Virus record (IMG/VR): IMGVR_UViG_3300017917_003565
Span: 32,001 to 96,000 of that record
Length of the DNA: 64,000 nucleotides
Reading direction: 5' to 3' (one strand)
From: a virus
Shown in pieces: positions 2,466-61,531 of the stretch. Within the stretch, counting starts at the first letter, position 1. Each line of letters starts with the position of its first letter. A model generated the notes under the pieces. It saw nothing but the letters and a program-made list of their open reading frames with translations. It was not told the origin of the DNA and did not search any database. Position numbers and translations under genes: made by a program.

Positions 2466-2466
2466 A

Positions 2467-4527
2467 TCACAATATCACCGCTTCAATAATCTTTTGACCC
2501 GGATCAAGATTGGTTTCTAAAGATTTAGCAAACACTGCCTGTCCATAGGTACGATCCAATCCTATGCTCTTGGCACTACCAGGTATAGAATCCGTGACTA
2601 GACCATCGCCTTTGGTCACTGGTCCCATCACATTGACCTTCACACGCCCACGCAGGGCTACGGGTATACCGTCAGCCCCGGCATTCATTAAGTGTGCTGG
2701 TTTGTCACTGATAACTCCAGCTACTCTAGCATCAGCGAATTCTGTGCAGATGGTTATTTCGGCATCTCCGCCAAATATCACTACCACTCCTGGCGCATAG
2801 GCCTGATCTGGCAGATAGTTTTCTGCAAGGTCTGCATACACCGCACTGGTGGACTGCGCAAACACTGTGTTAAAATAGTTGGTATCACTACCTATGTTAC
2901 CAATGGCATTACCATTGGCATTGATAATGTTGCCCAGAGTCACTGTGCCAGTGCCTACATTGAGATTGCCCACAGTGGCATTGCCTGTGGCAGTGATAGA
3001 TCCGGAGGTTTCTAAGTTGCCCACAGTGGTATTGCCTGTGGCAGTGATAGATCCGGAGGTTTCTAAGTTGCCCACTGTAGCATTACCTGTGGCCGATAGG
3101 ATGGCCGACACTACGTTACCAGTCACTGACAACGAAGTACCAGTCATGATGCCACCCGACACTGATATTGCTGAGACTGCTCCAGTCACCAAAAGATTAC
3201 CAATCACATCTTGACCCAAAGGTGTGAACAAAGCAACAGGAGCGATGCCATTGACATTGACTGATATATTACCGGCACTGCCGCCGATCAATACATTGGA
3301 GTTGCCATTTTGCAAAGTAGATACATTGACATCGGTCAGTAGGCTACCGTTGCCTATGATGTAGTTTCCAATGATGTTGCCTGTGGCCGAAACACGACCT
3401 CCGGTGTTGATATTACCCCCGGTGATGTTGGCAGTGGCAGCCACTGTAACTCCGGTGTAGTTGGCAGCAGAAATGTCACCACCTACATTGACATCCTGTA
3501 TCACGTTTAAGAATCCAGTGGTGCGTATGTTGCCTGTGGCCGAAATCTGGCCACCAGTGATGATATTGCCGCCGGTGATGTTGCCAATAGCCACCACTCG
3601 AGCCAAACTGTTGATGTTGTTGCCTACCACATTGCCAGCAGCATAGACAATATCATTGGAGTTGACATTGCCAGCTACCACGTTGGCGGTAGTGAACACA
3701 AACCCTGTGGTTCGCAGATTGCCAGCGTCTACGTTGCCTGTGGCGCTGACTGCGCCCAGGATGTTGAGAACATTGGGTCCACTGTTGTCAAATACCAGAC
3801 CTGCGGTAGCAGCCACGTTGCCGGCTCCATCATTGAATACCACTGCACCACCAGGCCCAGGAATGTTGGTGATGTTGGCCACGATGTTGCCAGTGAAGTT
3901 ACCAACAAAAAATCCTGCAGTCACGATGTTGCCCGTGGCACTGACTGTGCCGACGGTATCTATGTTGGCACCATTGACATTGCCGGCTGAGATATTGCCG
4001 TTGGTAGAGATGGTGTTACTGCCAAACGAGGACAACAATGTGACTACGTTGGCATCAGTATAAGTAGCCGGTAACCCTGTGAGTTGGCTACCGTTGCCCA
4101 AGATATAGTCTCCGGTGACGTTGCCGGTGGCTGATACTACACCATCCACATACTGTCCAGTAGTACTCACCACTACCACGTTGCTTAGTCCGCCCACACT
4201 CATGGTAATAGGAGCACCAAGGTCATCAATGCTGACGTTGCTAGTACCCAATGATATACTGGTAACCGAGATGTTACCAGTCTGGGCCAGTTGCCCCCAG
4301 ATCACTGTGCTGCCGTCATAGTCAGCAAAACAATAGTAAAAAAAGCTGGAATCATAGGCATACATACCGGCGGTGTCACCAAAAGTACCCACTAACGAAA
4401 TCGGGGGATCTGTTTGTACACGGCTGTAGAGCTCGCTGAAGTTGCTGTTGCAATAGTTAAATGCAGTGGCTAGGGGTGTTCCGTCACCGGAATTTTGTGG
4501 TGTGGTTACGATGGTAAGTTGAGCCAT
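2467..4527 (-). CDS. Tail fibre / baseplate-attached fibre protein
   Basis: N-terminal GDGTPLATAF..CNSNF (T4 gp9/gp10-like attachment motif), many '(S/T)ATGN(I/V)..GN' repeats, C-terminal 'YADLAENY...GVIS..PA..MN...VALRGRV' domain; TAAATA at 4549-4554. Confidence 0.8.
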   Translation of the reverse strand: MAQLTIVTTPQNSGDGTPLATAFNYCNSNFSELYSRVQTDPPISLVGTFGDTAGMYAYDSSFFYYCFADYDGSTVIWGQLAQTGNISVTSISLGTSNVSIDDLGAPITMSVGGLSNVVVVSTTGQYVDGVVSATGNVTGDYILGNGSQLTGLPATYTDANVVTLLSSFGSNTISTNGNISAGNVNGANIDTVGTVSATGNIVTAGFFVGNFTGNIVANITNIPGPGGAVVFNDGAGNVAATAGLVFDNSGPNVLNILGAVSATGNVDAGNLRTTGFVFTTANVVAGNVNSNDIVYAAGNVVGNNINSLARVVAIGNITGGNIITGGQISATGNIRTTGFLNVIQDVNVGGDISAANYTGVTVAATANITGGNINTGGRVSATGNIIGNYIIGNGSLLTDVNVSTLQNGNSNVLIGGSAGNISVNVNGIAPVALFTPLGQDVIGNLLVTGAVSAISVSGGIMTGTSLSVTGNVVSAILSATGNATVGNLETSGSITATGNTTVGNLETSGSITATGNATVGNLNVGTGTVTLGNIINANGNAIGNIGSDTNYFNTVFAQSTSAVYADLAENYLPDQAYAPGVVVIFGGDAEITICTEFADARVAGVISDKPAHLMNAGADGIPVALRGRVKVNVMGPVTKGDGLVTDSIPGSAKSIGLDRTYGQAVFAKSLETNLDPGQKIIEAVIL
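2966..3098. repeat. In-frame 51-bp tandem repeat (about 2.6 copies) in the fibre gene
   Basis: Units start at 2966, 3017 and 3068 and encode (A/T)TVGNLETSGSITATGN. Confidence 0.9.
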
Positions 4528-4583
4528 AGATCTATATCCTCTGGTATGTATTTACCAGAACCCTGGTTCAGGGAGATAACCGC

Positions 4584-4910
4584 TCAGTAAGGGCTAAAAC
4601 TTGATCCGCAACCGCAGGTGGTCTGCGCAGAGGGATTTCGTATGGTAAAACTGCTACCGTATTGGTCTTCTCGGTAGTCTACTTCAGCGCCTTGCAAATA
4701 GCCGCCGCTCATGGAATCTACCAATATTTTAACACCCGAGACTTCGAGATCCCAGTCGTCTTCGTTTTGTTGCTCGTCCAAGGTGAATCCATACTGAAAA
4801 CCGGAACAACCACCACCCTGCACGAACACGCGAAGTTTGAGCTCAGGGTTGTTTTCTTCTGCTAGGATGTCTTGCAGTTTGGCCACTGCGGATTCAGTCA
4901 CAGTGATCAT
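4584..4910 (-). CDS. erpA: Iron-sulfur cluster insertion protein ErpA (HesB/IscA family)
   Basis: [17 protein letters not shown] and TCGCGSSF motifs; ATGA overlap with the SOD stop. Confidence 0.93.
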
Positions 4911-5467
4911 AGCCGCTCGTTGCAAACATCCCAATCAATGATTTTCCAGATGTTATCTAGGTAACGTTCTTTGTCGCTTTGATAATCTAGGGCCCAGGCA
5001 TGTTCCCACCAATCAATAAGCACGCATATATCTGTACGCACAGCATGGTTGCGTATAGTCTTGATTTCGCCCGTGGTCGAAAGATACACCCAACCTGACC
5101 CTTGGATCTTCATGGCCACATCCTTTATGGCTTCTTTGAAATCTTCATAGGTCTTGAATTTGCTTTCAATCAGTTCCAGCACAGCACCACGAGGTTTGTT
5201 AGCACCTTTTGGCGGTTTGAGCTGTGGGAAAAACTTGTTGTGCAAGAAACTGCCAGCGCGATTAAAATCAGGATCTCCTTCACCACTGTTGTATCTTTTT
5301 GCATAGCCCTTGGCCAAATGATCATAGTGATAGTCCATGGTTTCTTTTGACATCACAGGATATAGATCACCGGGTCCGTAGGGCAAAGGTGTGGTTTCCA
5401 GCTTGGCCGGACGAGTGGTAGCTTCTAAGAGATCGATATGTTCTCGCAGATGTGGTAAAAAATCCAT
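4907..5467 (-). CDS. sod: Fe/Mn superoxide dismutase
   Basis: LPY..L.P.MS.ET..YH..H, LHN.FF, QGSGW and DWWEHA metal-ligand motifs. Confidence 0.92.
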
Positions 5468-5895
5468 TAGGTTTGCCTCACTACTAATCCACCGGAGTTG
5501 TTGTAATACACCTGTCCTATAGACACACCGCCTGCAGCGGCGGTGGAATCATTGCTGAAAGGTCCTGCAAAAGAGAATCCTGTACCTGTTTCAAAGTTGG
5601 CCACTGTATTGGCCACTGAGTCCAGAGCGGCCTGGACATTGGATACTGCTGTGGGCCAATCTCCTGGGTTGGTTTCGGTATAGCTTACAGTATTGGCGCT
5701 TACGTTTCCGCCAAAACTCACTGCTACTCCGTTGGCATAACGATAGCCATCAGTTAAAATATTGGCAGTGTTGATATTGCCACTGATGGTGATGGTGTTA
5801 AAACTTACTGCATCAAGGTCAGCATCACCAATACTACCTTCTAAGGGGTTTTTGATCGAACGGGCTTTGCCGTCGTTGCCTTTTACAAATCCCAT
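5467..5895 (-). CDS. Hypothetical virion-like protein
   Basis: Start moved to MGFVKG (AAAGGA RBS, TAAATA at 5912-5917); C-terminal 'ND..AAAGGV..GQVYY' motif is common in phage structural proteins. Confidence 0.55.
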   Translation of the reverse strand: MGFVKGNDGKARSIKNPLEGSIGDADLDAVSFNTITISGNINTANILTDGYRYANGVAVSFGGNVSANTVSYTETNPGDWPTAVSNVQAALDSVANTVANFETGTGFSFAGPFSNDSTAAAGGVSIGQVYYNNSGGLVVRQT

Positions 5896-5914
5896 AAAAT
5901 ATCCTTTATGGTAT

Positions 5915-6133
5915 TTATCGGCGCCGGGTAATACGTCCGCGGGTGAGATCATACGGGCTGAACTCGATTTCTACAACATCGCCCAACAACACTCGTATAT
6001 GATTCATGCGCATGCGGCCAGAAAGGCTGGCTAAAACGGGTTTTTCAAACTGTTCAAGTTGCACACGGTACATGGTATTTGGTAACACGTCTGACACGAC
6101 GCCTTCCATTTTGATCACATCATCTTTGCTCAA
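5915..6133 (-). CDS. infA: Translation initiation factor IF-1
   Basis: MSKDDVIKMEG.V...LPN..YRV...SGRMR.N.IRVL.GD.V..E.SPYDLTRGRI..R. Confidence 0.96.
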   Translation of the reverse strand: MSKDDVIKMEGVVSDVLPNTMYRVQLEQFEKPVLASLSGRMRMNHIRVLLGDVVEIEFSPYDLTRGRITRRR

Positions 6134-6142
6134 AGTATTGTA

Positions 6143-6547
6143 TTATCTCCTCATTTTACTTATATCTTGAGCTTCTTGATCAGAAAAGATTGGCACAGCA
6201 TTTGATTTGTGCATGGTACCAATGCCTTTGATTTTAGTACCGGTATAGACCTTGTCTGCAGGACGAGCCGCTACTGCACCTGGAGTATCTGGAATACTGG
6301 GAATATGTTGCTGAGGCTCACGCCCAGGCGGATACTGCGGGCTCAAACGCACGATTTTGGTCACAGCAGGTCTTGCTTTGTTTGATGAAAAATGTGGAGC
6401 CAGATCGGCCCATTCACGTTGGTGTTGTTCCCATTGGGCCTGTAGATCACGTGCCTTTCTTGCGGCATCAGCCGACGCATACTTGCGGCGTTTTGATTTT
6501 ACCTTGCCTGTGGTTGTTAACCAAGGGCCTTCGAGATGCATGGTCAT
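6143..6547 (-). CDS. Conserved phage hypothetical protein
   Basis: C-terminal YTG..IKGIGTMHKSNAVPIF motif typical of T4-like phages. Confidence 0.65.
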   Translation of the reverse strand: MTMHLEGPWLTTTGKVKSKRRKYASADAARKARDLQAQWEQHQREWADLAPHFSSNKARPAVTKIVRLSPQYPPGREPQQHIPSIPDTPGAVAARPADKVYTGTKIKGIGTMHKSNAVPIFSDQEAQDISKMRR

Positions 6548-6548
6548 G

Positions 6549-6650
6549 TTATACGCTACCCATCATGTTGCCAATAAAAAAACATACTACGCCAACCAAT
6601 GCTATAAAACCCCACTTGATATATACCCATTTGGATTTGATATCTACCAT
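6549..6650 (-). CDS. Small membrane peptide (33 aa), not in the ORF track
   Basis: AAGGAG RBS; MVDIKSKWVYIKWGFIALVGVVCFFIGNMMGSV. Confidence 0.55.
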   Translation of the reverse strand: MVDIKSKWVYIKWGFIALVGVVCFFIGNMMGSV

Positions 6651-6669
6651 ATTTTTCTCCTTTTGATTT

Positions 6670-6903
6670 TTATTGTGGTTGTTGCAGTTGTTCCCACATG
6701 TATTCCGAATCTTTGATCCAGGCTTCGGTAGAAATCCAACCTTTGCTTATGGCCAACTGAACAATCTTTTGCACATCAGCAGGGCACGATGATTCAATGG
6801 TGATGGCCGCACGTGGGTAATAGGCAAACCCTGAAACGATACAAAAGTCTTCGTCTTTGGCTGTTAGTCTACGCAACTGCGGATTGTCATATCTCAAGTT
6901 CAA
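6670..6903 (-). CDS. Hypothetical protein
   Basis: TTG start after an AGGAG RBS, downstream of the promoter at 6932-6960. Confidence 0.6.
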   Translation of the reverse strand: MNLRYDNPQLRRLTAKDEDFCIVSGFAYYPRAAITIESSCPADVQKIVQLAISKGWISTEAWIKDSEYMWEQLQQPQ

Positions 6904-6931
6904 AATAAAACTCCTATTTTACTATACCAAT

Positions 6932-6960
6932 ATTATAGCACGATAGGAGTTTTTGGTCAA
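6932..6960 (-). promoter_or_regulatory. Sigma70-type early promoter
   Basis: TTGACC-17-TATAAT. Confidence 0.8.
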
Positions 6961-6965
6961 CCATA

Positions 6966-7280
6966 TTATTTGAACAGTATCATGGCCATGATCACGGCCT
7001 GTAGTATAAACCCAAGCCCAATAGTGATGACATTCAGCATGTCTTTGAGCACTACGGCCCGGAAAAACAACAGGATTAGGCCAGTCCACATGAACAACAC
7101 AATGTCCAGATTGGGTACCGTGTCGCTAAGTCCAGTCAACAGTGCAAGAAGCGTGGGCACGGTGGCACAGTGTATGACCACCACGGCCAACCAGCCCAGG
7201 GTTTCAGCACTTACTTTGGGCAAGTGTTGTTCTAACCAAGTTCTTGCAGATTTCAAATAAGCGTCTAATTTTTCGATCAT
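6966..7280 (-). CDS. Three-TM membrane protein
   Basis: Hydrophobic helices; coupled to the SleB gene. Confidence 0.65.
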   Translation of the reverse strand: MIEKLDAYLKSARTWLEQHLPKVSAETLGWLAVVVIHCATVPTLLALLTGLSDTVPNLDIVLFMWTGLILLFFRAVVLKDMLNVITIGLGFILQAVIMAMILFK

Positions 7281-7837
7281 AGTTTTTCCGCATAAAAGAT
7301 GTGTCTCCCAAACTTGGCCACTTGAGGTTTACCCCATTGTGGTTTTATATAATCCGCATGGAAATACAGCGCATTCTTCACGCTGGGCAAGCGGAAGCCC
7401 TCTAGCAGGACTTTTTTGGCCACTTCTTCGGCTTCGCGCCAGTGAGCTGCATAAATGGGCCGGACACGGCTGGTGCCATCACAGAACCATGAGAACTGGC
7501 AGACCACTCGATCATAGACCACATTTTTTTGATACACAACGCCGCAGATGTCCGGAGCAAATCTGCCAGACTCCACGCGATTGATAGTGACCTGGGCCAC
7601 GGCTACTTTGCCTTCAAAGGGCTCAGTGGCGGCTTCCCAGTAGATGTTGCGTGTCAAACAGTCCAGTTGTTTGGTACGATCTGCCACGCTGATGAACCCT
7701 TGACGGGCGGCTTCATTGGTGCTTTTGAGGGCATCCAGTTTGGAATCAGTCACAGCGGTCACTGCGATGATCACGGCCAAGAAGCTGGCCAGTTTTACTG
7801 CTATGCTACCTAGATTGGACTTTGAAGAGATCTTCAA
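7277..7837 (-). CDS. Cell wall hydrolase, SleB/Hydrolase_2 family
   Basis: CL..NIYWEA..E...G..AVAQV..NRV, ICGVVYQ, CQFSW, ALYFHA.Y..P.W, GRHIFY; TTG start after AAGGAG; N-terminal TM. Confidence 0.9.
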   Translation of the reverse strand: MKISSKSNLGSIAVKLASFLAVIIAVTAVTDSKLDALKSTNEAARQGFISVADRTKQLDCLTRNIYWEAATEPFEGKVAVAQVTINRVESGRFAPDICGVVYQKNVVYDRVVCQFSWFCDGTSRVRPIYAAHWREAEEVAKKVLLEGFRLPSVKNALYFHADYIKPQWGKPQVAKFGRHIFYAEKL

Positions 7838-7844
7838 TGTTTTC

Positions 7845-8122
7845 TCCTTCGGGCTCAAGTGGGCCGTTTCACCGGAGGTCCAGGATGGACACATTGACAG
7901 AAGCGTGGGCTAAAGAAAAGACCTCGGGCCTTCTTTGGCATACTGTCCTGGCGCGGTTTTGTCTTTCCCCGGGCCTGTACCATTTGTCAATGAAGAGGAT
8001 TTCCGAAGTCCTCTTGTAAAAGTGACCAGCTTCCCGGCACTGGTCGATCCGTTTTGGAGTAGATCTAGATTGTAATCTTCCGCTGATCGAATCAACGACA
8101 GCCGGATTGTTTTTTCTACTCT
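7845..8122 (-). ncRNA. Candidate structured RNA / long structured leader upstream of the SleB gene
   Basis: At least 6 stems plus a CCAGGA/TCCTGG pseudoknot; begins just after TAAGTA (8129-8134). Confidence 0.55.
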
Positions 8123-8200
8123 CTAAAATACTTAGTTTGTCATGAAAATCAGGCTCAAATAACCATGATTTTTCCAGCGTTTTTACCATAATATACAGCT

Positions 8201-8230
8201 ATTATAGCGCATCGCCGGTACGGTTGTCAA
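8201..8230 (-). promoter_or_regulatory. Sigma70-type promoter
   Basis: TTGACA-18-TATAAT. Confidence 0.7.
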
Positions 8231-8751
8231 TCCACATTGGGCGGAGGCATGGCCTTTAGTTTATCCCACACTGATTGTTTTTCTTTGATGTGTTTTTCCA
8301 AAGCTCGATAGCGATCACCCAGTTCTCGCAGTTCCTGCCATTCAGATTCCAGAGCTGGATTTACGGTCAACAGATTCAATCTTTCTCGAATTTCGCGTAT
8401 GGAGCCCATGAGACTTTCGCCATTGATTTCGATGTCAGCATCTTCACCGTTGACTTGTAGTTTGGCACCGGTGGGATTGCTGGTAATCCAGGGAGCCACG
8501 GTAGCTGTCCCTGTGTTGGTCCAAACATTGGGATAAGCATACCCGTTGGTCCCACTGACGTTATTGATCGCAGTAAGATCGCTGATGGTCAGAGTGGGCA
8601 CCGTGCCGCTGGCAGTGTAATAATCACCATCACCACTGTAGGAACCAATATGGCTGAAATCGAGCGTGATGCTGTTATTGTCATTGATGATGATGCTGTC
8701 ATCCATGGTTTGAGAGGCTGTGCCCGGAGGCACATTTATTGTAAGTGACAT
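8227..8751 (-). CDS. Hypothetical protein
   Basis: 174 aa; Thr-rich N-terminus, coiled-coil C-terminus. Confidence 0.65.
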   Translation of the reverse strand: MSLTINVPPGTASQTMDDSIIINDNNSITLDFSHIGSYSGDGDYYTASGTVPTLTISDLTAINNVSGTNGYAYPNVWTNTGTATVAPWITSNPTGAKLQVNGEDADIEINGESLMGSIREIRERLNLLTVNPALESEWQELRELGDRYRALEKHIKEKQSVWDKLKAMPPPNVD

Positions 8752-9839
8752 TAGGCTTTCCTTTCGAACTCACGCATGAATTCCACCAGTGCTTGTACGC
8801 CTGCCACAGGCATGGCGTTGTAGATGCAGGCACGCATACCGCCGGCCAGTTTGTGCCCACGCAGAGCTATCAGCCCTGCTTCGGTTGATTGGGTCAAAAA
8901 CTTTTCATTCAATCCTTCATCTTTGAGATAAAACGTCACATTGGCCCGAGAACGGCACTCCGGACTGACCCGATTTTCATACAGCGAACTGGAATCAATG
9001 TAGTCGTACAACAAAGATGACTTGATTTTGCCAAGCCGTTCCATTTCTGCCACTCCGCCTTGGCGTTTGAGCCATTTCAACACCAGTCCAGAAACATAGA
9101 TTGCAAAAGTAGGTGGAGTGTTTACCCAAGGCACAGTATTTTTGGCCCAGTCCCAAATGGTCGGAGTTATGGGCATGGCGTGTCCCAACAGATCCCGGCG
9201 AACTATGACCACAGTGACTCCGGCTGGCCCTATGTTTTTTTGTGCTGCAGCAAACAACACTCCGCACTTACTGACGTCCATGTGCCTTGATAGGATATTG
9301 CTAGAGACATCAGCCACTAATGGCACTCCCGCGGTATCAGGAAAATCTTCAAACTCCACTCCGCCTACAGTTTCGTTGGAACAGATATGCACATAAGCTG
9401 CATCTTGAGAGAGATTCCATTGATCGCGATCTGGAATGCTGGTAAACTGACCATTGGATGGACAAGCCACGATGTTTGCCTGCCCATATTTTTGTGCTTC
9501 TTGGGCCGACATCTCAGACCAGATACCAGTGACAACAAAATCAGCTGTGCGATTCTTGGACAATGGCAAGAGATTCATGGGTATGGCTGCATTTTGTCCA
9601 ATACCTCCTCCCTGCAACATCAATATTTCATAGTCATCGGGAATCGCCATCAACTCACGTAGGTCAGCCAATGTTTCATAATAGACTTCTAAGAACTCCT
9701 GGCTACGATGGTTGAGTTCCATCATGCTGGTGCCTACACCGTTCCAGTTCAACATTTCGTCGGCGACCTGTTGTAGGACTTCTTCAGGTAGAGCCGACGG
9801 TCCGGGAGTGAAGTTGTAAACCCGATGATCAAACTTCAT
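8751..9839 (-). CDS. serC: Phosphoserine aminotransferase
   Basis: YNF.PGP..LP, HRS, LQGGG, CSNET..G, DVSS, AQKNIGPAG (PLP Lys), NTPPTF, GH...GG.RA..YNA. Confidence 0.95.
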   Translation of the reverse strand: MKFDHRVYNFTPGPSALPEEVLQQVADEMLNWNGVGTSMMELNHRSQEFLEVYYETLADLRELMAIPDDYEILMLQGGGIGQNAAIPMNLLPLSKNRTADFVVTGIWSEMSAQEAQKYGQANIVACPSNGQFTSIPDRDQWNLSQDAAYVHICSNETVGGVEFEDFPDTAGVPLVADVSSNILSRHMDVSKCGVLFAAAQKNIGPAGVTVVIVRRDLLGHAMPITPTIWDWAKNTVPWVNTPPTFAIYVSGLVLKWLKRQGGVAEMERLGKIKSSLLYDYIDSSSLYENRVSPECRSRANVTFYLKDEGLNEKFLTQSTEAGLIALRGHKLAGGMRACIYNAMPVAGVQALVEFMREFERKA

Positions 9840-9844
9840 GATGA

Positions 9845-10033
9845 TTAGGTTTTTTGAGCCAGGGCTTCTTTTTCTGCGGTGATTTCTTTACGGCGTTCTT
9901 TGATGGCCTTGCTCATTTCTTGCAGAGCTTTGCGGGCGCGGGCAGCCGAGGCTTTGACGCCTTTGCCGGAGAACTTGTCATTTTCAGCCAAGTAGGTTTC
10001 GAATGCTGTTTTGATTGCTTCGTGATTGCTCAT
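9845..10033 (-). CDS. Histone H1-like Hc1 family small basic protein
   Basis: ENDKF..KG.KASAARARKALQEM......RRKEI. Confidence 0.7.
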   Translation of the reverse strand: MSNHEAIKTAFETYLAENDKFSGKGVKASAARARKALQEMSKAIKERRKEITAEKEALAQKT

Positions 10034-10095
10034 TTGATTTCCTTAGGTTGGTGTGCAGAGCGCACCTATTAATTATACTGCACAAATCCCAGCTG

Positions 10096-10338
10096 TCAAA
10101 TATTTAGATGCCGTTTTAACCAAGGATCCCAAATCATCACATTGTCCCAATCATGGGGCCATGTCATGAGAAAAAGGTTGAATGTGTTGTGATCAAAGAT
10201 GTGCATACGGTTGTCCTCTACCTTGGCCTGTATGCTTTTGCTGGTGCTGGTCCAAGCGATCAAGCGTCCGCGGGCCGCGGGATCACGATGGATCACGGTA
10301 TACAAGGGTTCTGAGGTGCGATACTGGGGTATAGTCAT
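10096..10338 (-). CDS. Hypothetical protein
   Basis: Promoter TTGACA-16-TATAAT at 10072-10099 overlaps its end; gene packing. Confidence 0.6.
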   Translation of the reverse strand: MTIPQYRTSEPLYTVIHRDPAARGRLIAWTSTSKSIQAKVEDNRMHIFDHNTFNLFLMTWPHDWDNVMIWDPWLKRHLNI

Positions 10339-10575
10339 CTAGTGTAGAACTTGATCAACAGGTCTAGGCTCGTTGACTTGCTCTACATATTTAACGAATT
10401 CGTCGTCAATAATCAGTCTCTCGTCGTCGTGGGCCTGTGCCTGCTCGTCTGGCACTCCCAAAATCCTCATGAGGCCGCCAACATGAACTTCGGTTATACC
10501 ACAGTCATGCAATACCACGCAGAGATTTAGAATCGACAGGCGTATGGCCTGATCAACAGGAAGATCGTCCAGCAT
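10339..10575 (-). CDS. Hypothetical protein
   Basis: ATG 6 nt after TAAGTA. Confidence 0.6.
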   Translation of the reverse strand: MLDDLPVDQAIRLSILNLCVVLHDCGITEVHVGGLMRILGVPDEQAQAHDDERLIIDDEFVKYVEQVNEPRPVDQVLH

Positions 10576-10589
10576 AACACATACTTATG

Positions 10590-10868
10590 CTATCGGTATC
10601 GGCTTTCAATTTCTTGGGGTGATGATGGAACCACGCCTGTGGTCACTGTGTGTATTTTAACGATGCCGGATTCTTGGCACACAGGCTCGTCGGCAAATGC
10701 CCGGCTCACACGACAATCTTTGTTGTTTACGGCACTAACAGCATGGTCAGTTACTGTGCGTCCAGTAGTTTCACTCACAGCCACACTGCCTATGCCCAGT
10801 CCGGTGAGTACCATGGGAGTAGCACAACCCGACAATGCTACGGTACAGATCAACAGACAGCGGATCAT
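10590..10868 (-). CDS. Putative lipoprotein
   Basis: Signal peptide with lipobox LSGC; AGGAG RBS. Confidence 0.7.
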   Translation of the reverse strand: MIRCLLICTVALSGCATPMVLTGLGIGSVAVSETTGRTVTDHAVSAVNNKDCRVSRAFADEPVCQESGIVKIHTVTTGVVPSSPQEIESRYR

Positions 10869-10879
10869 GAGCTCTCCTA

Positions 10880-11190
10880 TGTAAGTGCCCGGCTACCTTA
10901 TGTCACAGGCCCCGGGCTGGAATAATACCAATTCGATGTGCTGTTTACTATCCCGCCGCAGTCGGTGTGGCCAAGTTTAAGGACTCACTACCACCAACCC
11001 GCACCACTAAGGCTGGTGCGCCGCCCTTCATTTGCCCCGAAGCCGGGTTGACATAGGTTTTGCTACTGGACTATTTGCTAGACCTCAACGGCTTTACTCG
11101 AGTTTACGGTTTATTGATCTAGTTAGTCAGGCTTGATCCGGTCCATCGCTTCCAATAGCAAAACCTATATCAGGGGGCGAACCCCCTGTG
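10880..11190 (-). ncRNA. Candidate structured ncRNA cluster
   Basis: About 310 nt without an ORF; UUCG hairpin, 21-bp closing stem around a three-way junction, further hairpins; G-U pairs work only on the minus strand. Confidence 0.6.
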
Positions 11191-11193
11191 GTA

Positions 11194-11517
11194 TTAGGCT
11201 ACTTCTTTAACTGCAGATTTTGCAGATGCTTTAGTTGCCTTGACCTTGACTTCACCGCGCTTGGCGATCTTGGTCTTCTCAGCCAGTTTGTTGGCTACTG
11301 CATAGCCAGCGTCGCCAGTCATGCCCAAAGTCTGCAAGTGCTGGAGAGCTTCTAACTTGGTCATTGCCTTGGGCAATTCGATCAAGTTAATGTTGGTGCA
11401 ACCTGCTTTGTTGAGGATCTTGATACGAGCTACCAAGTCATTGGCGAAACGAGCTTTGACAGTACCGTTAGGGTTCTGTGCCGTACCTGCTACTGTGAAT
11501 AACTTTTCTGCTGCCAT
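11194..11517 (-). CDS. Conserved basic hypothetical protein
   Basis: FTVAG....G.VKARFAND...RIKIL.K.G...I.L.ELP..MTK; own promoter TTGACA-17-TATAAT at 11580-11608. Confidence 0.7.
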   Translation of the reverse strand: MAAEKLFTVAGTAQNPNGTVKARFANDLVARIKILNKAGCTNINLIELPKAMTKLEALQHLQTLGMTGDAGYAVANKLAEKTKIAKRGEVKVKATKASAKSAVKEVA

Positions 11518-11637
11518 TTTGTGTTGCCTTTCTAAGTTGCCTTACTAGTTGATAAAAGTTTACTGCTACTACAATGACCATTATACTTGAAATCGAAATC
11601 AATGTCAACCATAATAGTCATATCTGGTTTACCAAAA

Positions 11638-11769
11638 TCACTTGTTTTGGTCTAAGATATTGGTAACCACACTGTTGGTAGTGTCCACAGCCTGTGCCAA
11701 AAGACTCTTGGTCACGGCCGGGTGTAACACCGCCAGGGTCACTAGGATACCAAAAATAAATCCTTTCAT
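11638..11769 (-). CDS. Small membrane protein (43 aa)
   Basis: GGAGG RBS; MKGFIFGILVTLAVLHP... Confidence 0.6.
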   Translation of the reverse strand: MKGFIFGILVTLAVLHPAVTKSLLAQAVDTTNSVVTNILDQNK

Positions 11770-14186: not shown

Positions 14187-14201
14187 TAAACTTAACTATA
14201 A

Positions 14202-14237
14202 CTATATTATAACCGAAATGGGTATTTCTGGTCAACC
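14202..14237 (-). promoter_or_regulatory. Early promoter, identical 36-bp copy also at 14795-14830
   Basis: TTGACC-AGAAATACCCATTTCGGT-TATAAT. Confidence 0.85.
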
Positions 14238-17764: not shown

Positions 17765-18832
17765 TTACTGTTTGGGTCGGCCAATGTATTCGTGGCTATA
17801 GCACACTCGATGAGCATCACGAGCCGTAGTGGTGCCACCATAGCCGGGCATGGCTCGTACAGTGCCGTCTTTTTTGATGTAACTGGCTGCACGGCTTTTA
17901 CGATTGGTCGAAGTCGGCCGCCATAGAGGTGAATGCTCTCGGTGCTCGCCAAAGCTGGGATGAGCAGTTTTTGAAAAATATCTAAGGCCACGATCCACAT
18001 ATATCTGAGCAATGGCATCACTGAAAGCAGTACCTATTCCCATACCTTGGAACTCAGGTAGCACAACTGTTCTATGACCGCGCCAGTATGAGTGTATGTC
18101 TCTGTTGGTGGAATGTATGGCAGCATGGAAGGCCACAGGTTTGTCGCCAATAAGTCCCACATAGCAATGGACTGATCGACTCATTCTAGTATCTAGATAG
18201 TGATATTTTGAGAAATATCGCCAATAGTCCGGAGTTGTGCTTCGGATGGTGAGTGTGATCTTTGGTCGCCCCAATCGAAGAAGTGACCTCCGATTATCTA
18301 ATACCTGTAGGTCGGTATCATACACCCAGTCTGGATCCAGCCAGTCTATTATGTCTCTGTGACAACTAGCGATATACAACACGCCAGGATTGCGGTCAAA
18401 ATACTTACGAACGCTTAATGCCAAACTTTTGGCAGTATCACGATCAACCACCGATGTAAACTCGTCAATGATCGTGTGTCCTTGATCCAGGCCCATGGCG
18501 ATTTCAAATCTATGAAACTCACCATTGCTCAGAGTACTGGGTTTACGGAACCAAGCAGGTATGGTTCTCAGACCACAAGCAAGTAACAGTTCTTCGCCAC
18601 GTTCAGGTGTACTAAAGTTTTCAATAACTGTTTTATCATAATCAATATCAAAGTCAACATCAAAAGGCTTTGGATTATCTACAGTTCGAAGAATTGTAGT
18701 CTTGCCTGACCCCGAAGTTCCTACGATCAACACAATGCCTTGGGTAGGTAACTTGGGAATGACTATGTTGGGTTCAACATAGTCCTTGATATCATAGCGT
18801 TGTTTGATTTCGTCAAGATAGTTGCCAGGCAT
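17765..18832 (-). CDS. ABC-type ATPase fused to a GNAT acetyltransferase
   Basis: Walker A GTSGSGKT, signature LSNGE, Walker B IIDEFTSVVDR, SCH; C-terminal FSKYHYL and RTVVLPEFQGMGIG acetyl-CoA motif. Confidence 0.85.
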   Translation of the reverse strand: MPGNYLDEIKQRYDIKDYVEPNIVIPKLPTQGIVLIVGTSGSGKTTILRTVDNPKPFDVDFDIDYDKTVIENFSTPERGEELLLACGLRTIPAWFRKPSTLSNGEFHRFEIAMGLDQGHTIIDEFTSVVDRDTAKSLALSVRKYFDRNPGVLYIASCHRDIIDWLDPDWVYDTDLQVLDNRRSLLRLGRPKITLTIRSTTPDYWRYFSKYHYLDTRMSRSVHCYVGLIGDKPVAFHAAIHSTNRDIHSYWRGHRTVVLPEFQGMGIGTAFSDAIAQIYVDRGLRYFSKTAHPSFGEHREHSPLWRPTSTNRKSRAASYIKKDGTVRAMPGYGGTTTARDAHRVCYSHEYIGRPKQ

Positions 18833-19766
18833 CCGAATATTCCATTATGCTGTCAAAGGTGTTTTTGGGAGTGGGCATGATGCTGGGACTATACAACAAA
18901 ATTTCTTGTGCGGACTTGGCGGTGCGCACTGTTTTATCATCTTTCTCTTCCGTGGCTCTGCGTCCAGCAGTGTACTTGATGTCGTAGTAGTTGATTGATA
19001 AATGCCCTCGGTTGGAGGTATAAAACGTGTCGGTGTCTCCGGCCATGCGATTGCAATACATGACCAGGTGTCCGGCTAAATCTGCTGATTTGCAAAAATC
19101 TATGAGCTTGACATGTGCCGTGTCATCAAACGTGGTACCGTACTGTGTGAAACTGTCTCGATATGGTGGATCAAAAAAGTAAAACGCACGGCCTGGAACT
19201 TGATCCACACAACTTTCCCAGGATCCGCTGTGTATAGTCACTCGTTGCAAGAAAGCATGCCATTCCATGACATTGGCTCGATCATACACTGATCCGCGAT
19301 GATTCAACAGGCCCGATGGGGTACAGAAACGACCTTTGGCTTCTTTGGTGCTTTGCCATATGCCGTTGAATGCTGTTTTCATAAGGAAGTATAAACATGC
19401 GCTCTGGCGAGTGGGCGACCAGCTGGCCCAGTCAGTGATGTATTCTTTGCGTATCTGATAGTAGTAGGCCTTGCGGGCGTTGGCATCCATGGGCAGATAG
19501 GTGTTGCAATAGGCATCACATTCTTGTAGGAACACAGCCACATCGTTGCGTATGGCACGATACAGACCCACAATCTCTTCATTGATGTCATTGAGAACAA
19601 AGTTTTGAACCGTGGGATTGTTTTCATATACATGGATCATCATGGCACCGCCGCCAAAGAATGGTTCCACGTAGGTGTCGTATCCGCTGAGAGGTAGCCC
19701 TGGGGCTTCCTGATACTTGGGTATCATTTTGCTCTTGCCGCCGGCCCACATGTACAATGGTTTCAT
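18813..19766 (-). CDS. DNA adenine methyltransferase, Dam/D12 family
   Basis: W.GGK, YVEPFFGGG, LNDIN, FNG, FFDPPY, ..QY. Confidence 0.92.
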   Translation of the reverse strand: MKPLYMWAGGKSKMIPKYQEAPGLPLSGYDTYVEPFFGGGAMMIHVYENNPTVQNFVLNDINEEIVGLYRAIRNDVAVFLQECDAYCNTYLPMDANARKAYYYQIRKEYITDWASWSPTRQSACLYFLMKTAFNGIWQSTKEAKGRFCTPSGLLNHRGSVYDRANVMEWHAFLQRVTIHSGSWESCVDQVPGRAFYFFDPPYRDSFTQYGTTFDDTAHVKLIDFCKSADLAGHLVMYCNRMAGDTDTFYTSNRGHLSINYYDIKYTAGRRATEEKDDKTVRTAKSAQEILLYSPSIMPTPKNTFDSIMEYSDAWQLS

Positions 19767-20647
19767 TAGGTATTTAATCTAGGGTTTACTGTGAGAATAA
19801 AATTGCTTTCATAGGCCTCGGCTATGTCTTTGGTAGAGTAGGCATTGGCCAACATGTCAAGAGCTAGATCCTTGGCTTCTGGCTTGTCCTCTCTACTGAC
19901 TCGCACCCAGGCCTGTGCCAATGGATCACGCTTGTTTTGCAAGATTTCCATGAATTGATCATCGATGCTGTTGAGCTTTTGTTTGACCAGAATATCTGCC
20001 ATGATCTGCTCAGGAGTGAGAGTTTCTTCAAACAGTGACAAGAAATGATTGGTGCGAACCTTGCTGTCAAGATAGGGCTTGATATCATTGAATTTGAGAT
20101 CGTCTAGTTTCAGTGTGGACCTCATGATTTCAAAGATTTGTTCTTGACTGAATCCGTCGGGTGCATAATGCCATTTGACATTTGAGCCATGGATGATTTC
20201 CATGTTGGTACCATGTCTGTGCAACACTTCTCCTTGGGCCGCACCAGCACCGGTGGCAAAGGTCACATATTCGCAATCAGGGTTGATCGCGGTACAAATG
20301 TCATGATTGGTGCCCCAGCGTTCAATAGCATTGCCACCGGTGCCTTGATGCTTGGCTTCAAACACACATTTGAGTCGACGGTTTTTCACTGTTCTATCAC
20401 CATCAAACCACATGCCGCCGTCGGGCACACAGCCTAACGTGATGCCCATGGACACCAGTTCTGGCAATCCAGCACGATCTCTCACGCTTTCGCTGATACG
20501 GTCACTGGTGAGATTCCTATGACCTTGTTCATAATGATATCGTTTTTGGGCCAAGGCAATGGCCTGCGAAACCACTCGGACATCGCCGTCGAGTTTTTTG
20601 GATTCTGCGCTGCCTGCTTCGGTACCTTTTTGTATGCCACCTGCCAT
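19766..20647 (-). CDS. EcoRI-family restriction-endonuclease-like protein
   Basis: PDGG ... EAKHQG ... GNAIER matches the EcoRI catalytic (PD..EAK) and recognition (GNAIER) motifs. Confidence 0.75.
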   Translation of the reverse strand: MAGGIQKGTEAGSAESKKLDGDVRVVSQAIALAQKRYHYEQGHRNLTSDRISESVRDRAGLPELVSMGITLGCVPDGGMWFDGDRTVKNRRLKCVFEAKHQGTGGNAIERWGTNHDICTAINPDCEYVTFATGAGAAQGEVLHRHGTNMEIIHGSNVKWHYAPDGFSQEQIFEIMRSTLKLDDLKFNDIKPYLDSKVRTNHFLSLFEETLTPEQIMADILVKQKLNSIDDQFMEILQNKRDPLAQAWVRVSREDKPEAKDLALDMLANAYSTKDIAEAYESNFILTVNPRLNT

Positions 20648-20702: not shown

Positions 20703-20944
20703 CCACCATATTTCAGCAGACACAACGTGTATTTCTGGGAATCAATGATTTCGGGTTCCCCAGTAATACCACCATCCTCGTCATAGATCGGTCGGAATCC
20801 ATGTTGAGCTTCGCACCAATCCCAAAAGTTCCAATCAGTAGGATGATCTAACATGACCTTGCCTAGCATAGCCCAGTAGGCTTTACTATCGCCCACTACG
20901 GTGTCTAATCGTGCCGCCCGGTCTCGATAGAGATCATCGTTCAT
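20699..20944 (-). CDS. Hypothetical protein
   Basis: Coupled ORF; ends YTLCLLKYG. Confidence 0.6.
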   Translation of the reverse strand: MNDDLYRDRAARLDTVVGDSKAYWAMLGKVMLDHPTDWNFWDWCEAQHGFRPIYDEDGGITGEPEIIDSQKYTLCLLKYGG

Positions 20945-21254
20945 TGGGCCACCTTAGTTGAAAGAAGTTGAGTTCCTTGTCGGTGGCCAAGAAAAAATAA
21001 AATAGGTTATATTTGCTAGGATTGTCCCATGCCCAGTGTGGGTTTACTGTGTAACCATGATGTTCTAGGTAACCATGGTAACGTGCCTCGCAACTGTGTC
21101 CCCAGGTATCTGTGCACCAATTTTTCATGCGACGATACAGGTCTATCTTGGCAGGAAAATCTCGTAACTCGCCATCGTTGATGTGTATGCGATACCGAGC
21201 AAAATGACTTCCTGTGTATCTGCGATCTATAAGTTTGATATCGTAGTTTTTCAT
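20934..21254 (-). CDS. Hypothetical protein ('F.L(R/K)W' family)
   Basis: WC..TWG ... ELNFFQLRW. Confidence 0.65.
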   Translation of the reverse strand: MKNYDIKLIDRRYTGSHFARYRIHINDGELRDFPAKIDLYRRMKNWCTDTWGHSCEARYHGYLEHHGYTVNPHWAWDNPSKYNLFYFFLATDKELNFFQLRWPNER

Positions 21255-21264
21255 TTTGTTCACA

Positions 21265-21495
21265 TGCTCTGCCAGGGCCGGCGGTTACTATAGAAGCAAT
21301 CTGTGCCACAACCAGTTGGTGGCACGTCTTGGTTGCCCGATGGGGCTCAGCAAGACAGGATTAACAACCTCGCCATCCGCTTCACGGCGCCCTGCGTTAT
21401 CGTATTGCCAACGCCAGTTGGGTTTGACTGGGACCACCCGTAGTTCGCTAAAACCACTATCATGCGGGTCACACTAGACAGGCGCTACCTGTCAC
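21265..21495 (-). ncRNA. Candidate structured ncRNA (about 230 nt)
   Basis: No credible ORF; about 9 consecutive stems. Confidence 0.6.
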
Positions 21496-21501
21496 GAACC
21501 A

Positions 21502-21696
21502 TTAGTGGAGAGTGTCTCCACCATCCACACCCCAAAATACCGATCCACCAGCATCATGAAGATCCTGCATTTTTTTGTTCATTACGGCTTCCTGTACTCT
21601 TAGTAATACTTCATCTATCTCGTCCTGTGTCAACATGCTTTCCGGCAACTTGCCTTCTAACACTGCCCAAATAATCATTTCTCTATCTTCGGTCAT
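21502..21696 (-). CDS. Hypothetical protein
   Basis: AGGA RBS; gene packing. Confidence 0.6.
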   Translation of the reverse strand: MTEDREMIIWAVLEGKLPESMLTQDEIDEVLLRVQEAVMNKKMQDLHDAGGSVFWGVDGGDTLH

Positions 21697-21704
21697 GCCA
21701 GTTC

Positions 21705-22121
21705 CTATCTACAATCACATTTCATCAATCGTTGGTCTCGATGTCTGCGCCAGACAGCATCCAGATCATCTGCACGGAATATCTTGTCAAACAATCGGTC
21801 AGTAATGCCTTCTACACCAGCATAGACGATTTCTTGTGTGCCTTCCCACCATTCGTAGTCAAGATTCCACTTTGGTATCAGAGACCCACGGGCGTCGCTG
21901 TCATGCATGGGCACTATGTTGCGCCACTGTAGCATGAGGCGGTCCAAGGTTTCCTGCCAATACCAACGGCTCCATTCCGAACTAGCACGGCCCAGAGCTT
22001 CTCGGGCCGCATCCAATCTCAAACCAAGATTTTCCATTTCCAAGCCTATCATGCGCCAGTTACGCAGATCTGCTTGCACAGCCACAAACTCTATAGGGGT
22101 TGACTTGGCAAATAGGTTCAT
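21705..22121 (-). CDS. Hypothetical protein
   Basis: Downstream of TTGACC (22152-22157). Confidence 0.6.
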   Translation of the reverse strand: MNLFAKSTPIEFVAVQADLRNWRMIGLEMENLGLRLDAAREALGRASSEWSRWYWQETLDRLMLQWRNIVPMHDSDARGSLIPKWNLDYEWWEGTQEIVYAGVEGITDRLFDKIFRADDLDAVWRRHRDQRLMKCDCR

Positions 22122-22157: not shown

Positions 22158-22424
22158 TCAAGACCATTTCATTACGAATGCCAGACAATCTCTTTCATCG
22201 TCAAAGAAAAAACAGTAGCGTCCGGGTTTGATGTCTGAACTCATTTCTATCAACTGCCAGCGCCATTCACCAATGATTTCGCTTTTGCACCAGCTCAGCA
22301 CAGTTTCTATCGCGCCAAAAGGTTTGATGATTTCTTGTGCATAGCGGAAACTGTCACGATCTCTGACCCAATCCATCGGTGGCATCTGTGGATCGGGCTT
22401 GACTTTGCTTTTAAGCTGGGTCAT
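22158..22424 (-). CDS. Hypothetical protein ('F.L(R/K)W' family)
   Basis: WC......W.W ... Y.FFF.DERD..AF.MKW. Confidence 0.65.
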   Translation of the reverse strand: MTQLKSKVKPDPQMPPMDWVRDRDSFRYAQEIIKPFGAIETVLSWCKSEIIGEWRWQLIEMSSDIKPGRYCFFFDDERDCLAFVMKWS

Positions 22425-22812
22425 AGATCAATCTATTGACGTGTTGCTTGGGTATACCCCAGAAATCATAGCTGTCTATGATGTCACGCACATAACCAGA
22501 ACTAGGTGTGCCAGTTTTTGGATCATTCATTTCATAGAAGAAAAACTGTATGCCATCTTGTATCCAGGTACGTTTAACATAATAATATGGAAAACCTTCA
22601 AAATGATCCAGAGACTGTTCACAATCACGAGTAAGGCTCCACAACACACCCGGGCATTCGGCACCTGGCCGAGGTTCAATGGTGGCATGGCAGTAAAACT
22701 TCAGTTCCCAATCACGCAACATAAACGCACCCTTGGCTTGAGCTTGTGGGCATCTCCAATGCATCTGTCCTGGATGCATGTTAGCACCATAGGCAAAATA
22801 TAAGTTTTCCAT
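22411..22812 (-). CDS. Gamma-glutamylcyclotransferase family protein
   Basis: YFAYGANM...QM..RCP, GVLW, LD.FEG.P..Y, PS..Y. Confidence 0.85.
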   Translation of the reverse strand: MENLYFAYGANMHPGQMHWRCPQAQAKGAFMLRDWELKFYCHATIEPRPGAECPGVLWSLTRDCEQSLDHFEGFPYYYVKRTWIQDGIQFFFYEMNDPKTGTPSSGYVRDIIDSYDFWGIPKQHVNRLIYDPA

Positions 22813-37400: not shown

Positions 37401-37864
37401 TAACTGTAAATCCAGCCCAGATTTTGTATTTTGTGTATCCACGTAAACACCGGAACATCAAATGTCAAGGTCCACTTACCGTTCCACCCCAGGTAACTTT
37501 GATTGGTCAACTGTTGCTGAAGTGCGACTCCACGTGATCGTTGCTCTTGGATCCAGAGTTTAGGATATCGAGGTTCATATACTCCGGCCCACACAAACTT
37601 GGGATCACTGATGCCAAAGAAACTCACGTTGTTGATAATCACAGCCTTGTCAAGATTGTGTTCTGGCACGGTGTCGTGATCGCGTTTGTTCAAAAACTCC
37701 ACTGTGAGATCACAGGGTTTATCGGATTCGAATTCAAACTCCAATGTGGCAGGTCTTGTGAGATCTCTTTCGCGCCGATCATCATTTACTGCCACACATA
37801 TACGAGGTGGTTCGGAATGCCAAACCGGCACAAGAGTGATTGCAAGTTTAACTGGATGTTTCAT
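37400..37864 (-). CDS. Hypothetical protein
   Basis: YLGWNG.W.L.F..PVF.W.H motif; overlaps the radical SAM gene. Confidence 0.6.
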   Translation of the reverse strand: MKHPVKLAITLVPVWHSEPPRICVAVNDDRRERDLTRPATLEFEFESDKPCDLTVEFLNKRDHDTVPEHNLDKAVIINNVSFFGISDPKFVWAGVYEPRYPKLWIQEQRSRGVALQQQLTNQSYLGWNGKWTLTFDVPVFTWIHKIQNLGWIYS

Positions 37865-39173
37865 AGTTGTATTTTTGCAACAACTCATGGAATTCTGGAT
37901 ACAGCGTCCTGGCATTATAGCCATACACGCGATCCCAACGTTCACAATGACGTACCATGGTTTCGAGTTGTGTTTCACTGTCTGGGGGTGTTGGAGTGGT
38001 CAAAACATTCACGCACATCTCGATCTGTTGTTTGATTACCTGTTGATAGTTATTAGGATCGCTGGCATTGTAATCGCCCACAGAAGTCACAGCAGACAGT
38101 CTGTGTTGCAACTTCGAATATTTCTGTAGGTATTGTTTCTTTATGGACTCGGGCAAGATTTCTGCAGACAAAAATCTCGGGTTATAACAGAGATTGCTCT
38201 TCACTATCAACTGTTGGGTGAGAGCAAAATCCAACAGACCCGGATAATATCCAATGGTCAGTAGACTGGGCGCCGGACGCAGAGTCACTGTAATATTGGA
38301 ACCATTGCAATGGGCTTGATATTGTTGTATATTAGACAGTACCAAAGCAGTATCAGTGCCTTGACGTTGGTAGGCATTGTGCTCATCCACGGTCTCTATA
38401 CTGATCTCCATGCCCACTCTGCGAAATCGTTTGAGTTTTTCAATCAACTGAGGACGAAACACTGTACCATTGGTCACAAAACTAAAACAAAGGTCGAATC
38501 TTTCATGCTGAATCATGAAATCTATCAAATCTTCAAGTCTAGGAGTCAACAAGGTTTCACCGCCCATGAAATGAATGTTGTTGAGGCCAGGTAGATCTAA
38601 TAACTGTTGTTTGAAACTGTTCCACACTTCGAGATTCTGTGTCCAGTCAGTGCCTAGATATTCGCGACTGGCATCAATGCCCCAACGTACCTCTTGACTG
38701 GCTATCACGCTGCTGGCTTGGGCATTACACATCTTACAGGCTAGATTACAGTAGTTGCCAAGATCGATGTGCAGGTCAATAGGTGTAGTAGTGGTGTATC
38801 CGTGATTGTTGGCGCTGTAAACAAACTTGGCGTGCCCGGGACTCTGTTGGAAACTGTCATTGAATGCAGACCTAGTGAAGATCACACTTTTCTGATTACT
38901 TTTGTGTCGACGACTGTTGCCATCGTGCGATTCTTCAATGTAACACCGTTGACACAACGACAATGGTGTGGTCGCCAGTATATTGGTTCTGAAATCACGC
39001 ACAGGTTCACTGTTAAACCAATCCTGTATGCTCATACGAGCAATATTGTACTGAGTGTGGCCAGGCTGATACAACTTATGTGCTTCTTGGCAACAAATCC
39101 CTAGGTCACCGTTCCAATAAATGTGTAACTCGTACCAGGGTGTGTTGCAAAATATGTGTTGATTAGGCGTCAC
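37848..39173 (-). CDS. Radical SAM protein with N-terminal SPASM/twitch-like Cys cluster
   Basis: [16 protein letters not shown]; N-terminal FCNTPW ... CC ... CQRC. Confidence 0.88.

Positions 39174-59606: not shown

Positions 59607-61531
<1,925 letters not shown>

Follow-up and report, generated by a model that had tools for sequence, protein, structure and literature searches.

Genomic setting

The window analyzed here is a stretch of 64 000 nt, positions 32 001 to 96 000 of the IMG/VR virus record IMGVR_UViG_3300017917_003565. The record is 112 kb long and estimated to be 33% complete, which implies a jumbo phage of roughly 340 kb, and it contains virion genes. It also encodes, within the window, a GroEL-type chaperonin (59607–61232; phrog_5725, E 1e-177), a radical SAM protein (37848–39173), and a gamma-glutamyl cyclotransferase-like protein (22411–22812). 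A run of small minus-strand genes is broken at window 21264–21501, between the genes that we call p64 and p106 (Table 1), by a gap of 238–247 nt, the longer length applying if p106 starts at the ATG at 21254 and the shorter if it starts at the GTG at 21263. The GC content of the gap is 0.565, compared to 0.44–0.50 in its surroundings, bearing out a first-pass annotation that had described a GC-rich gap in a tightly coupled gene run and had placed in it a densely structured RNA of about 230 nt.

The gene strand of the gap has no ORF of 50 aa or more, and no promoter-like or terminator-like site was recognized in the gap; a possible sigma-54 promoter, TGGCAC...TTGC, was dismissed on visual inspection, its spacing being two bases short. 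ARAGORN finds no tRNA or tmRNA in the window, nor in the 112-kb record, in agreement with the earlier statement that the segment is not a tRNA. The supposition that it belongs to no catalogued family likewise held: none of the 4227 models of Rfam 15 matches anywhere in the window at gathering thresholds, and over window 21000–21800 nothing matches even at E ≤ 10. The element has no tandem repeats, and no internal repeats by blastn.

The first-pass annotation had further grouped the RNA with elements at 7.9, 11.0, and 14.1 kb into a repertoire of phage noncoding RNAs. This grouping found no support: the elements have no sequence in common, and a covariance model, R1, made from the 5′-domain alignment described below, finds a single copy in the 112-kb record, where blastn likewise retrieves no second copy or related sequence. 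The 14.1-kb gap contains a ∼40-nt motif (window 14192–14237) that recurs at 77–98% identity in four to five further places of the same record (record positions 45467, 46791, 66604, 69306, and 107274). The motif, unrelated to the ∼230-nt element, probably serves as a promoter or regulatory box. The 11.0-kb gap (11049–11172) contains a 22-nt inverted repeat (91% match, arms ∼100 nt apart) and has no sequence in common with the element.

Table 1. Features at the locus, in window coordinates; element positions count from window 21500 along the minus strand (window coordinate = 21501 minus position)
Feature	Window	Strand	Element positions	Description
p64	21502..21696	(-)		64-aa ORF 5′ of the element; stop codon 8 nt ahead of H0
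Whole element	21264-21493	(-)		∼230 nt; ten helices in the comparative model
H0	21477..21493	(-)	8-13/19-24	5′ terminal hairpin, 6 bp, GACAGG/CCUGUC; 8 nt past the p64 stop codon
5′ domain	21397..21476	(-)		Opens with near-invariant UAGUGUGACCCG
H1	21467-21470 with 21432-21435	(-)	31-34/66-69	Encloses H2
H2	21440-21457	(-)	44-61	Hairpin inside H1
H3	21414-21431	(-)	70-87	Hairpin; loop CAAACCCA
H4	21401-21413	(-)	88-100	Hairpin; loop UGGCAAU
H5a, H5b, and H6, 5′ strands	21377..21392	(-)		4-nt YGRA bulge; partner 21274-21284
H5a, H5b, and H6, pairing		(-)	H5a 109-111/225-227; H5b 113-116/221-224; H6 121-124/217-220	Long-range
Linker after H6	21357..21376	(-)		First half conserved (AUGGCGAGGUUGU); second half variable in sequence and length
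H7	21326..21356 (with H8)	(-)	145-150/170-175	GUCUUG/CAAGAC; invariant junction strands CUGA and AAC
H8		(-)	155-166	Hairpin enclosed by H7
H9	21303..21325	(-)	176-198	Hairpin; 7 bp, GUGCCAC/GUGGCAC
H10	21285..21299	(-)	202-216	Hairpin; UUGCU/AGUAA; least certain helix
H6, H5b, and H5a, 3′ strands	21274..21284	(-)		Close the 3′ domain
3′ tail	21264..21273	(-)	228-237	GGCAGAGCAU
p106	20934..21254	(-)		106 aa from ATG 21254; GTG 21263 is the alternative start; gene directly downstream
orf49	21288-21437	(-)		Longest sense ORF; 49 aa from GTG at 21437
Antisense ORF	21256-21477	(+)		73 aa

Homologous copies and conservation

Relatives of p106 form five further 90%-identity clusters, 64–69% identical to it, and a metagenome scan with an alignment of these relatives yielded two contigs, L011 and L012. 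In each, a block of ∼213 nt directly 5′ of the p106 homolog aligns with the gap from UAGUGUGACCCG to CAGAGCAU. DNA identity of the element among the window, L011, and L012 is 87–93%; for the adjacent coding DNA it is 66–72% in p106 and 66% in p64. That the element stays ∼90% identical while the adjacent proteins drift to ∼65% argues for strong selection on something that it does. A fourth, diverged copy was retrieved with a 25-mer from the invariant H1–H3 region, in two IMG/VR jumbo-phage records that are identical at the element (L017 and L018; 49.6 and 169.5 kb, the larger estimated to be 48% complete). Identity falls to 77% in the 5′ domain of this copy, whose 3′ domain is rearranged and whose flanks are unrelated. 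The comparison of DNA thus covers four distinct copies (window, L011, L012, and L018), and the covariance model finds exactly one copy per record.

Other searches were negative. The homologs are as foreign to Rfam as the window is, with nothing at E ≤ 5 in L011, L012, and L021. Among GenBank phages, blastn finds nothing for the window region and nothing for the L018 copy; searches of IMG/VR with the single proteins p106 and p138, and with the p106 alignment, gave no relatives; and an exact 30-mer and an exact 23-mer from the element core are absent from IMG/VR. A 20-mer had four matches in 185 579 species genomes, all of which we rejected as chance because none extended past the word. The closest syntenic jumbo phage (L006/G003; 354 kb, 98% complete) has the genes p163, p293, and Dam in common with the window, with different genes between them and the element absent.

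Additional variants were recovered from gene calls that read through the element. These were placed codon by codon on the window, and we kept only the letters fixed by the amino acid, the basis being translations and not DNA. They comprise N-terminally extended p106 entries (P0002, P0160, P0175, P0180, P0182, P0187, and P0189) and “proteins” from the L018-type element (P0156, P0157, P0158, and P0192), and indicate that at least about a dozen distinct variants of the element exist. Gene callers have fused it in frame either to p106, giving “proteins” of 167 aa and 153–156 aa, or to a probable tRNA (e.g. P0175, P0160, P0180, P0156, and P0192); the read-through products are likely annotation artefacts.

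Secondary structure

The element has a 5′ hairpin (H0); a 5′ domain, in which H1 surrounds H2 and is followed by H3 and H4; a 3′ domain, closed by the long-range, GC-rich H5/H6 around H7/H8, H9, and H10; and a single-stranded tail, CAGAGCAU. This part of the tail is invariant in all four DNA copies, where it is followed by 7–10 A/U-rich nt and then the start codon, and by manual reading it is compatible with every back-translated variant. The linker after H6 is the site of indels and of most unpaired substitutions.

Ten stems had been proposed from the window sequence in the first-pass annotation. All ten complementary pairs are indeed present, and eight match helices of the comparative model: GACAGG/CCTGTC is H0, CCAGT/ACTGG is H3, TCTTG/CAAGA is H7, GCCC/GGGC is H8, GTGCCAC/GTGGCAC is H9, and TTGCT/AGTAA is H10, while ACCCG/CGGGT corresponds roughly to H1 and CGTT/AACG roughly to H4. 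The other two, CAGGG/TCCTG and CGCC/GGCG, are not kept in relatives; their 5′ halves belong instead to the long-range H5/H6 helix.

Folding energy of single sequences does not distinguish the element. The minimum free energy of 251 nt is −86.5 kcal/mol, compared to −84.7 ± 5.2 in dinucleotide shuffles (z −0.35); the z-score is −0.14 for the trimmed 230 nt, −0.93 for the opposite strand of the gap, and also about 0 for the L018 copy. Single sequences fold no better than their shuffles, and complementary words in a GC-rich stretch prove nothing alone. Model energies are equal on both strands, such that energy cannot tell the strands apart; the sole strand signal is given by nine G–U cells in conserved helices, which favor the sense strand. 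The above-chance structural signal comes solely from the comparison with relatives, and it is this signal, not stability, that upholds the earlier description of a densely structured RNA.

Covariation had been named as a check on that description, and two-sided changes indeed exceed both shuffled and slid controls. In the three close copies, whose MAFFT alignment is unambiguous, 96.6% of cells pair, with 7 two-sided pairs compared to 2.2 ± 1.3 in shuffles (equaled in 1 of 500) and 0–1 when partners are slid. For the 5′ domain in all four copies (alignment A5), 97.1% of cells are paired and there are 6 two-sided pairs, compared to 2.5 ± 1.1 in shuffles (0 of 500) and 0–2 in slid controls. In a manual four-copy model, 21 of 56 pairs covary and 5 cells are broken; less weight should be given to H0, H2, and H10 of L018, which were positioned by hand in a way that favors the model.

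The substitutions in the stems, as read from the aligned copies, are mostly compensatory. H7 is GUCUUG/CAAGAC in the window and GUUCUG/CAGAAC in L018, two two-sided changes; H4 occurs as CGU/ACG, CGC/GCG, and CCC/GGG; and H2 has four different sequences at one site. An H8 pair is C–G in the window and U–A in L012, and the hairpin has grown to ∼38 nt in L018, while H9 has a C–G to U–A change in L011 and L012 and is missing from L018; such variable-length and optional hairpins are usual in RNA families. H0 is weaker in L011 (5 of 7 pairs), and its site is occupied in other relatives by different hairpins, GAGGGC/GCCUUC in L012 and GCCG/CGGC in L018. The back-translated variants fit nearly every pair and add three more two-sided changes: pair 110–226 is G–C in the window, U–A in L018, and C–G in P0175; pair 122–219 is C–G in the window and U–A in P0175; and the A181–U193 pair of H9 is replaced by G–C or G–U. 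As aligned, one H5b pair and one H10 pair are impossible in these variants. H10 is invariant in the three close copies, and by manual reading a register shifted by 3 nt is possible for it in the back-translated variants.

The H4 loop (GGCAAU) and the H10 5′ strand (AUUGCU) are complementary and may form a pseudoknot; one position is compensated, in L018, and there is conflict with the back-translated variants. The CUGA/AAC junction was also inspected by eye as a possible hammerhead or kink-turn, and both readings were rejected.

Taken on its comparative evidence, the element is very probably a conserved, noncoding, structured RNA of ∼230 nt that lies outside Rfam. In IMG/VR, 8495 candidate structured RNAs of 29–151 nt were predicted in a 2023 survey (PMC10690425), which covers candidate phage leaders. 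We describe the element as an RNA family that is new relative to Rfam 15, with comparative support that is modest but real.

Neighboring genes

In every copy the element lies in the sense of the next gene, and the tail is 7–10 nt from the AUG in all four DNA copies. Upstream, a stop codon precedes the element by 8–12 nt in the window, L012, and L018. In L011, the upstream feature is a perfect TTGACA-17-TATAAT, with 8 nt from the end of the −10 box to H0; with a consensus promoter directly upstream, the element would be a 5′ UTR there. In L018 and L011, a stretch of U comes after the tail (8 U and 5 U, respectively). A 67%-identical homolog of p64 lies upstream of the element in L012, and p64 is absent from L011 and L018. 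Between the p64 homolog and the element, L012 has an insertion of ∼190 nt (557–712) with a small ORF containing a hydrophobic, probably membrane-spanning stretch, and upstream of the p64 homolog it has a heme-oxygenase-like gene (17–364; Pfam PF01126, E 9e-7). In L011 (1–1320), the element and p106 adjoin divergent genes, a bacterial-type TctC-like one and others that are solute-binding-protein-like; this region is either a phage auxiliary region or a prophage/host junction.

The next gene downstream is p106 in the window, L011, and L012; in L018, it is a 572-aa B12-binding radical SAM gene (10016–11734, minus strand), preceded by the diverged RNA copy. Farther along this strand, L018 also has six tRNA genes (Trp, Cys, Gly, Asn, Thr, and Ser; 1358–9845), scattered among ORFs. 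In three L018 relatives (P0156, P0158, and P0192), translation runs past the U-run, and the fixed letters give GGGGUUCGAGUCCCC, matching a T-arm, together with CUGUGAA as an anticodon loop; 20 of 21 cloverleaf pairs are feasible. From these back-translated letters, we consider it quite probable that the downstream feature in these relatives is a tRNA gene, probably for His.

Every member of the p106 subfamily with visible upstream sequence carries the element, while a more distant p106 homolog in a complete relative has no such leader. The wider family comprises 199 representative clusters of phage proteins of roughly 100 aa. An AF2 model of p106 reached pLDDT 93.5 (an earlier model from 6 sequences was poor, at 54). 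With this model, Foldseek finds nothing in the PDB at E ≤ 0.001; the best VIA-align Z is 5.6, among unrelated alpha/beta folds; and BFVD returns only uncharacterized phage proteins. Searched for p106, the ESM Atlas gives only hypothetical viral proteins and Pfam nothing useful.

Genes for a 293-aa protein (phrog_2400) and a D12/Dam-type methyltransferase are adjacent in nine IMG/VR loci and lie at window 17765–20647 (minus strand). Identities are 43–56% and 61–69%, respectively, for the five closer loci and drop to 31% and 43% for the remaining four; a third gene encodes a P-loop ATPase fused to a GNAT domain (phrog_11143), and in L012 the 293-aa gene directly follows p106. The set looks like a mobile restriction-modification-like cassette.

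Comparison with known systems

Phage cis-regulatory leaders and riboswitches include the manA and wcaG motifs and glutamine riboswitches in marine phages, and the translational operator of T4 gene 32. Like these, the element is in sense and directly 5′ of a start codon, contains invariant unpaired nucleotides at a junction of several helices, has stems that covary, and is more conserved in sequence than the gene that would be regulated. Unlike them, it matches none of the 4227 Rfam models, no terminator or helix sequestering a ribosome-binding site was found in it, and the gene downstream is not constant. The HK022 put RNAs, which serve in processive antitermination, offer a further parallel, by description, in that the element is promoter-proximal in L011 and could act in cis whatever gene follows; they are much smaller, two-hairpin elements.

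GOLLD and ROOL, both Rfam families, are large noncoding RNAs of phages and prophages, several hundred nucleotides long, that neighbor tRNA genes. The element shares with them its phage location, high conservation, and ornate structure, and heads a tRNA-rich region in the L018 lineage; it differs in being ∼230 nt long and wedged between protein genes, and in having no covariance-model match. Species 1 and 2 of T4 are small stable RNAs encoded by the phage in a tRNA gene cluster and co-processed with tRNAs, an arrangement resembling that proposed for the L018 relatives; the likeness is one of genomic arrangement, and the 112-kb record of the window lacks tRNA genes. In type III toxin–antitoxin systems (ToxIN-like), too, an RNA lies just 5′ of a small protein gene and the pair moves between contexts, but the antitoxin RNAs consist of tandem repeats with a terminator, neither of which the element has, and p106 shows no match to an endoribonuclease fold. 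By analogy, then, the element resembles a phage leader or riboswitch in position and anatomy, and the phage stable RNAs near tRNAs in the context of one lineage.

Possible roles

Our tentative preference, in which we have somewhat less than even confidence, is that the element is cis-acting, serving as a structured leader or as an intercistronic element. It would be transcribed in the sense of the surrounding genes, within the operon transcript; in L011, a consensus sigma-70 promoter of its own would put it at the transcript's 5′ end. The closing helix and tail would then lie within roughly 10–30 nt of the next start codon, where the 30S subunit must bind, and would control ribosome access, or the fate of the transcript, for the gene 7–10 nt downstream (here p106). 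Which state the fold adopts would depend on the binding of a small molecule or of a protein, the latter possibly p106 itself. The constant orientation and tail-to-AUG distance in the four DNA copies, the promoter that would make the element a 5′ UTR in L011, and its presence before every p106-subfamily gene with visible upstream sequence all point this way. Against these stand the lack of any recognized expression platform, or of a terminator-like or promoter-like site, in the gap; the variety of downstream partners (p106, the radical SAM gene, and probably a tRNA); and the more distant p106 genes that have no leader. Pairing between the linker and the start region is not conserved, the complementarity being significant in L018 alone (z −3.7) and not in the other three copies; a tail-to-linker helix was also seen in L018 only and was rejected. 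Proximity to the AUG may merely reflect genome compaction, since spacing is tight upstream of the element as well as downstream, and about half of the genes have no Shine–Dalgarno-like motif (such a motif is found in 53% of the genes of this phage). A folding energy that is no better than in shuffles and is the same on both strands, and a comparison of only four distinct DNA copies, also weigh on this reading.

We give nearly equal weight to the possibility that the element is the gene of a stable noncoding RNA, cut from the operon transcript and acting in trans, either by itself or in a ribonucleoprotein with p106. Its ends would be protected by H0 and the closing helix, cleavage would fall in the A/U-rich stretch after CAGAGCAU, and the target might be, for example, host machinery or defense. 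Nucleotide conservation well above that of the neighboring protein genes would suit such an RNA, as would the absence of a visible expression platform, and so would its occurrence beside features as unrelated as p106, a radical SAM gene, and probably a tRNA. In L018, it heads a tRNA-rich stretch on the same strand; L011 supplies it with a consensus promoter of its own, and a U-run follows the tail in both. Yet, with 8–12 nt upstream and 7–10 nt downstream, the window, L012, and L018 cannot accommodate a promoter or terminator, the search for an intrinsic terminator was negative, each genome has one copy, and no target was identified for the predicted RNA.

It is improbable that the element is a self-cleaving or processing ribozyme, one that would split a polycistronic phage transcript between the upstream cistron and the gene or tRNA that follows. 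Such a role would explain the intercistronic location, the high conservation of junction nucleotides, and the indifference to the downstream feature, including the probable tRNA, but no known self-cleaving family matches even at E ≤ 10, no cleavage-site signature was recognized, and ∼230 nt exceeds the size of most self-cleaving ribozymes. Less probable still is a site acting at the DNA level, for protein binding, recombination, or replication, with its hairpins formed in single-stranded or cruciform DNA. Equal model energies on both strands, and the presence of the element and p106 in different genomic neighborhoods, would accommodate this; however, the nine G–U cells would become A–C mismatches on the other strand, nested helices ∼100 nt apart and hairpins of variable length are typical of RNA, and orientation relative to the gene is constant.

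Hardly credible is a coding role, in which orf49 or the 73-aa antisense ORF would specify a small protein or the element would be the remnant of a decayed gene. By tblastn, orf49 is 84% identical in translation in L012, and gene callers drew ORFs through the element in several contigs. The frames are nonetheless broken in relatives on both strands: a 1-nt deletion throws orf49 out of frame in L011, and in L012 and L018 its fifth codon is an in-frame UAA; an indel of 1 nt within H2 puts the window and L011/L012 in different frames over the stretch with the highest conservation; and the antisense frame is truncated in L012 and shifted in L011. Substitutions fall 14/11/8 in the three codon phases, with no 3-base periodicity. 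The element ORFs have no Pfam or PHROG matches, and 5.8 billion clustered proteins include just one relative of the antisense ORF. A decayed gene is disfavored because the element is more conserved than its intact neighbors. We rejected a self-splicing intron, as p64 and p106 are not tied to one another (p64 is missing from L011, and both genes from L018) and no intron family matches.

Implications

Jumbo-phage genomes remain largely unexplained, with very few noncoding RNAs known from them. The present candidate comes with exact ends, a helix map based on compensatory pairs, and a candidate protein partner, p106. It is also of immediate use in annotation, in that public gene calls already translate through this RNA, fusing it to p106 or to a probable tRNA. 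Its helices and invariant junctions would suffice for a ligand sensor, a catalyst, or a protein scaffold. A bolder reading, which we regard as rather unlikely, is that it is the founding member of a new class of jumbo-phage functional RNAs, serving as a riboswitch or protein-responsive switch, a ribozyme, or the core of a small ribonucleoprotein with the p106 family, and controlling or working with accessory genes, possibly of defense or counter-defense. Were this true, its target or ligand would be unlike those of the catalogued classes.
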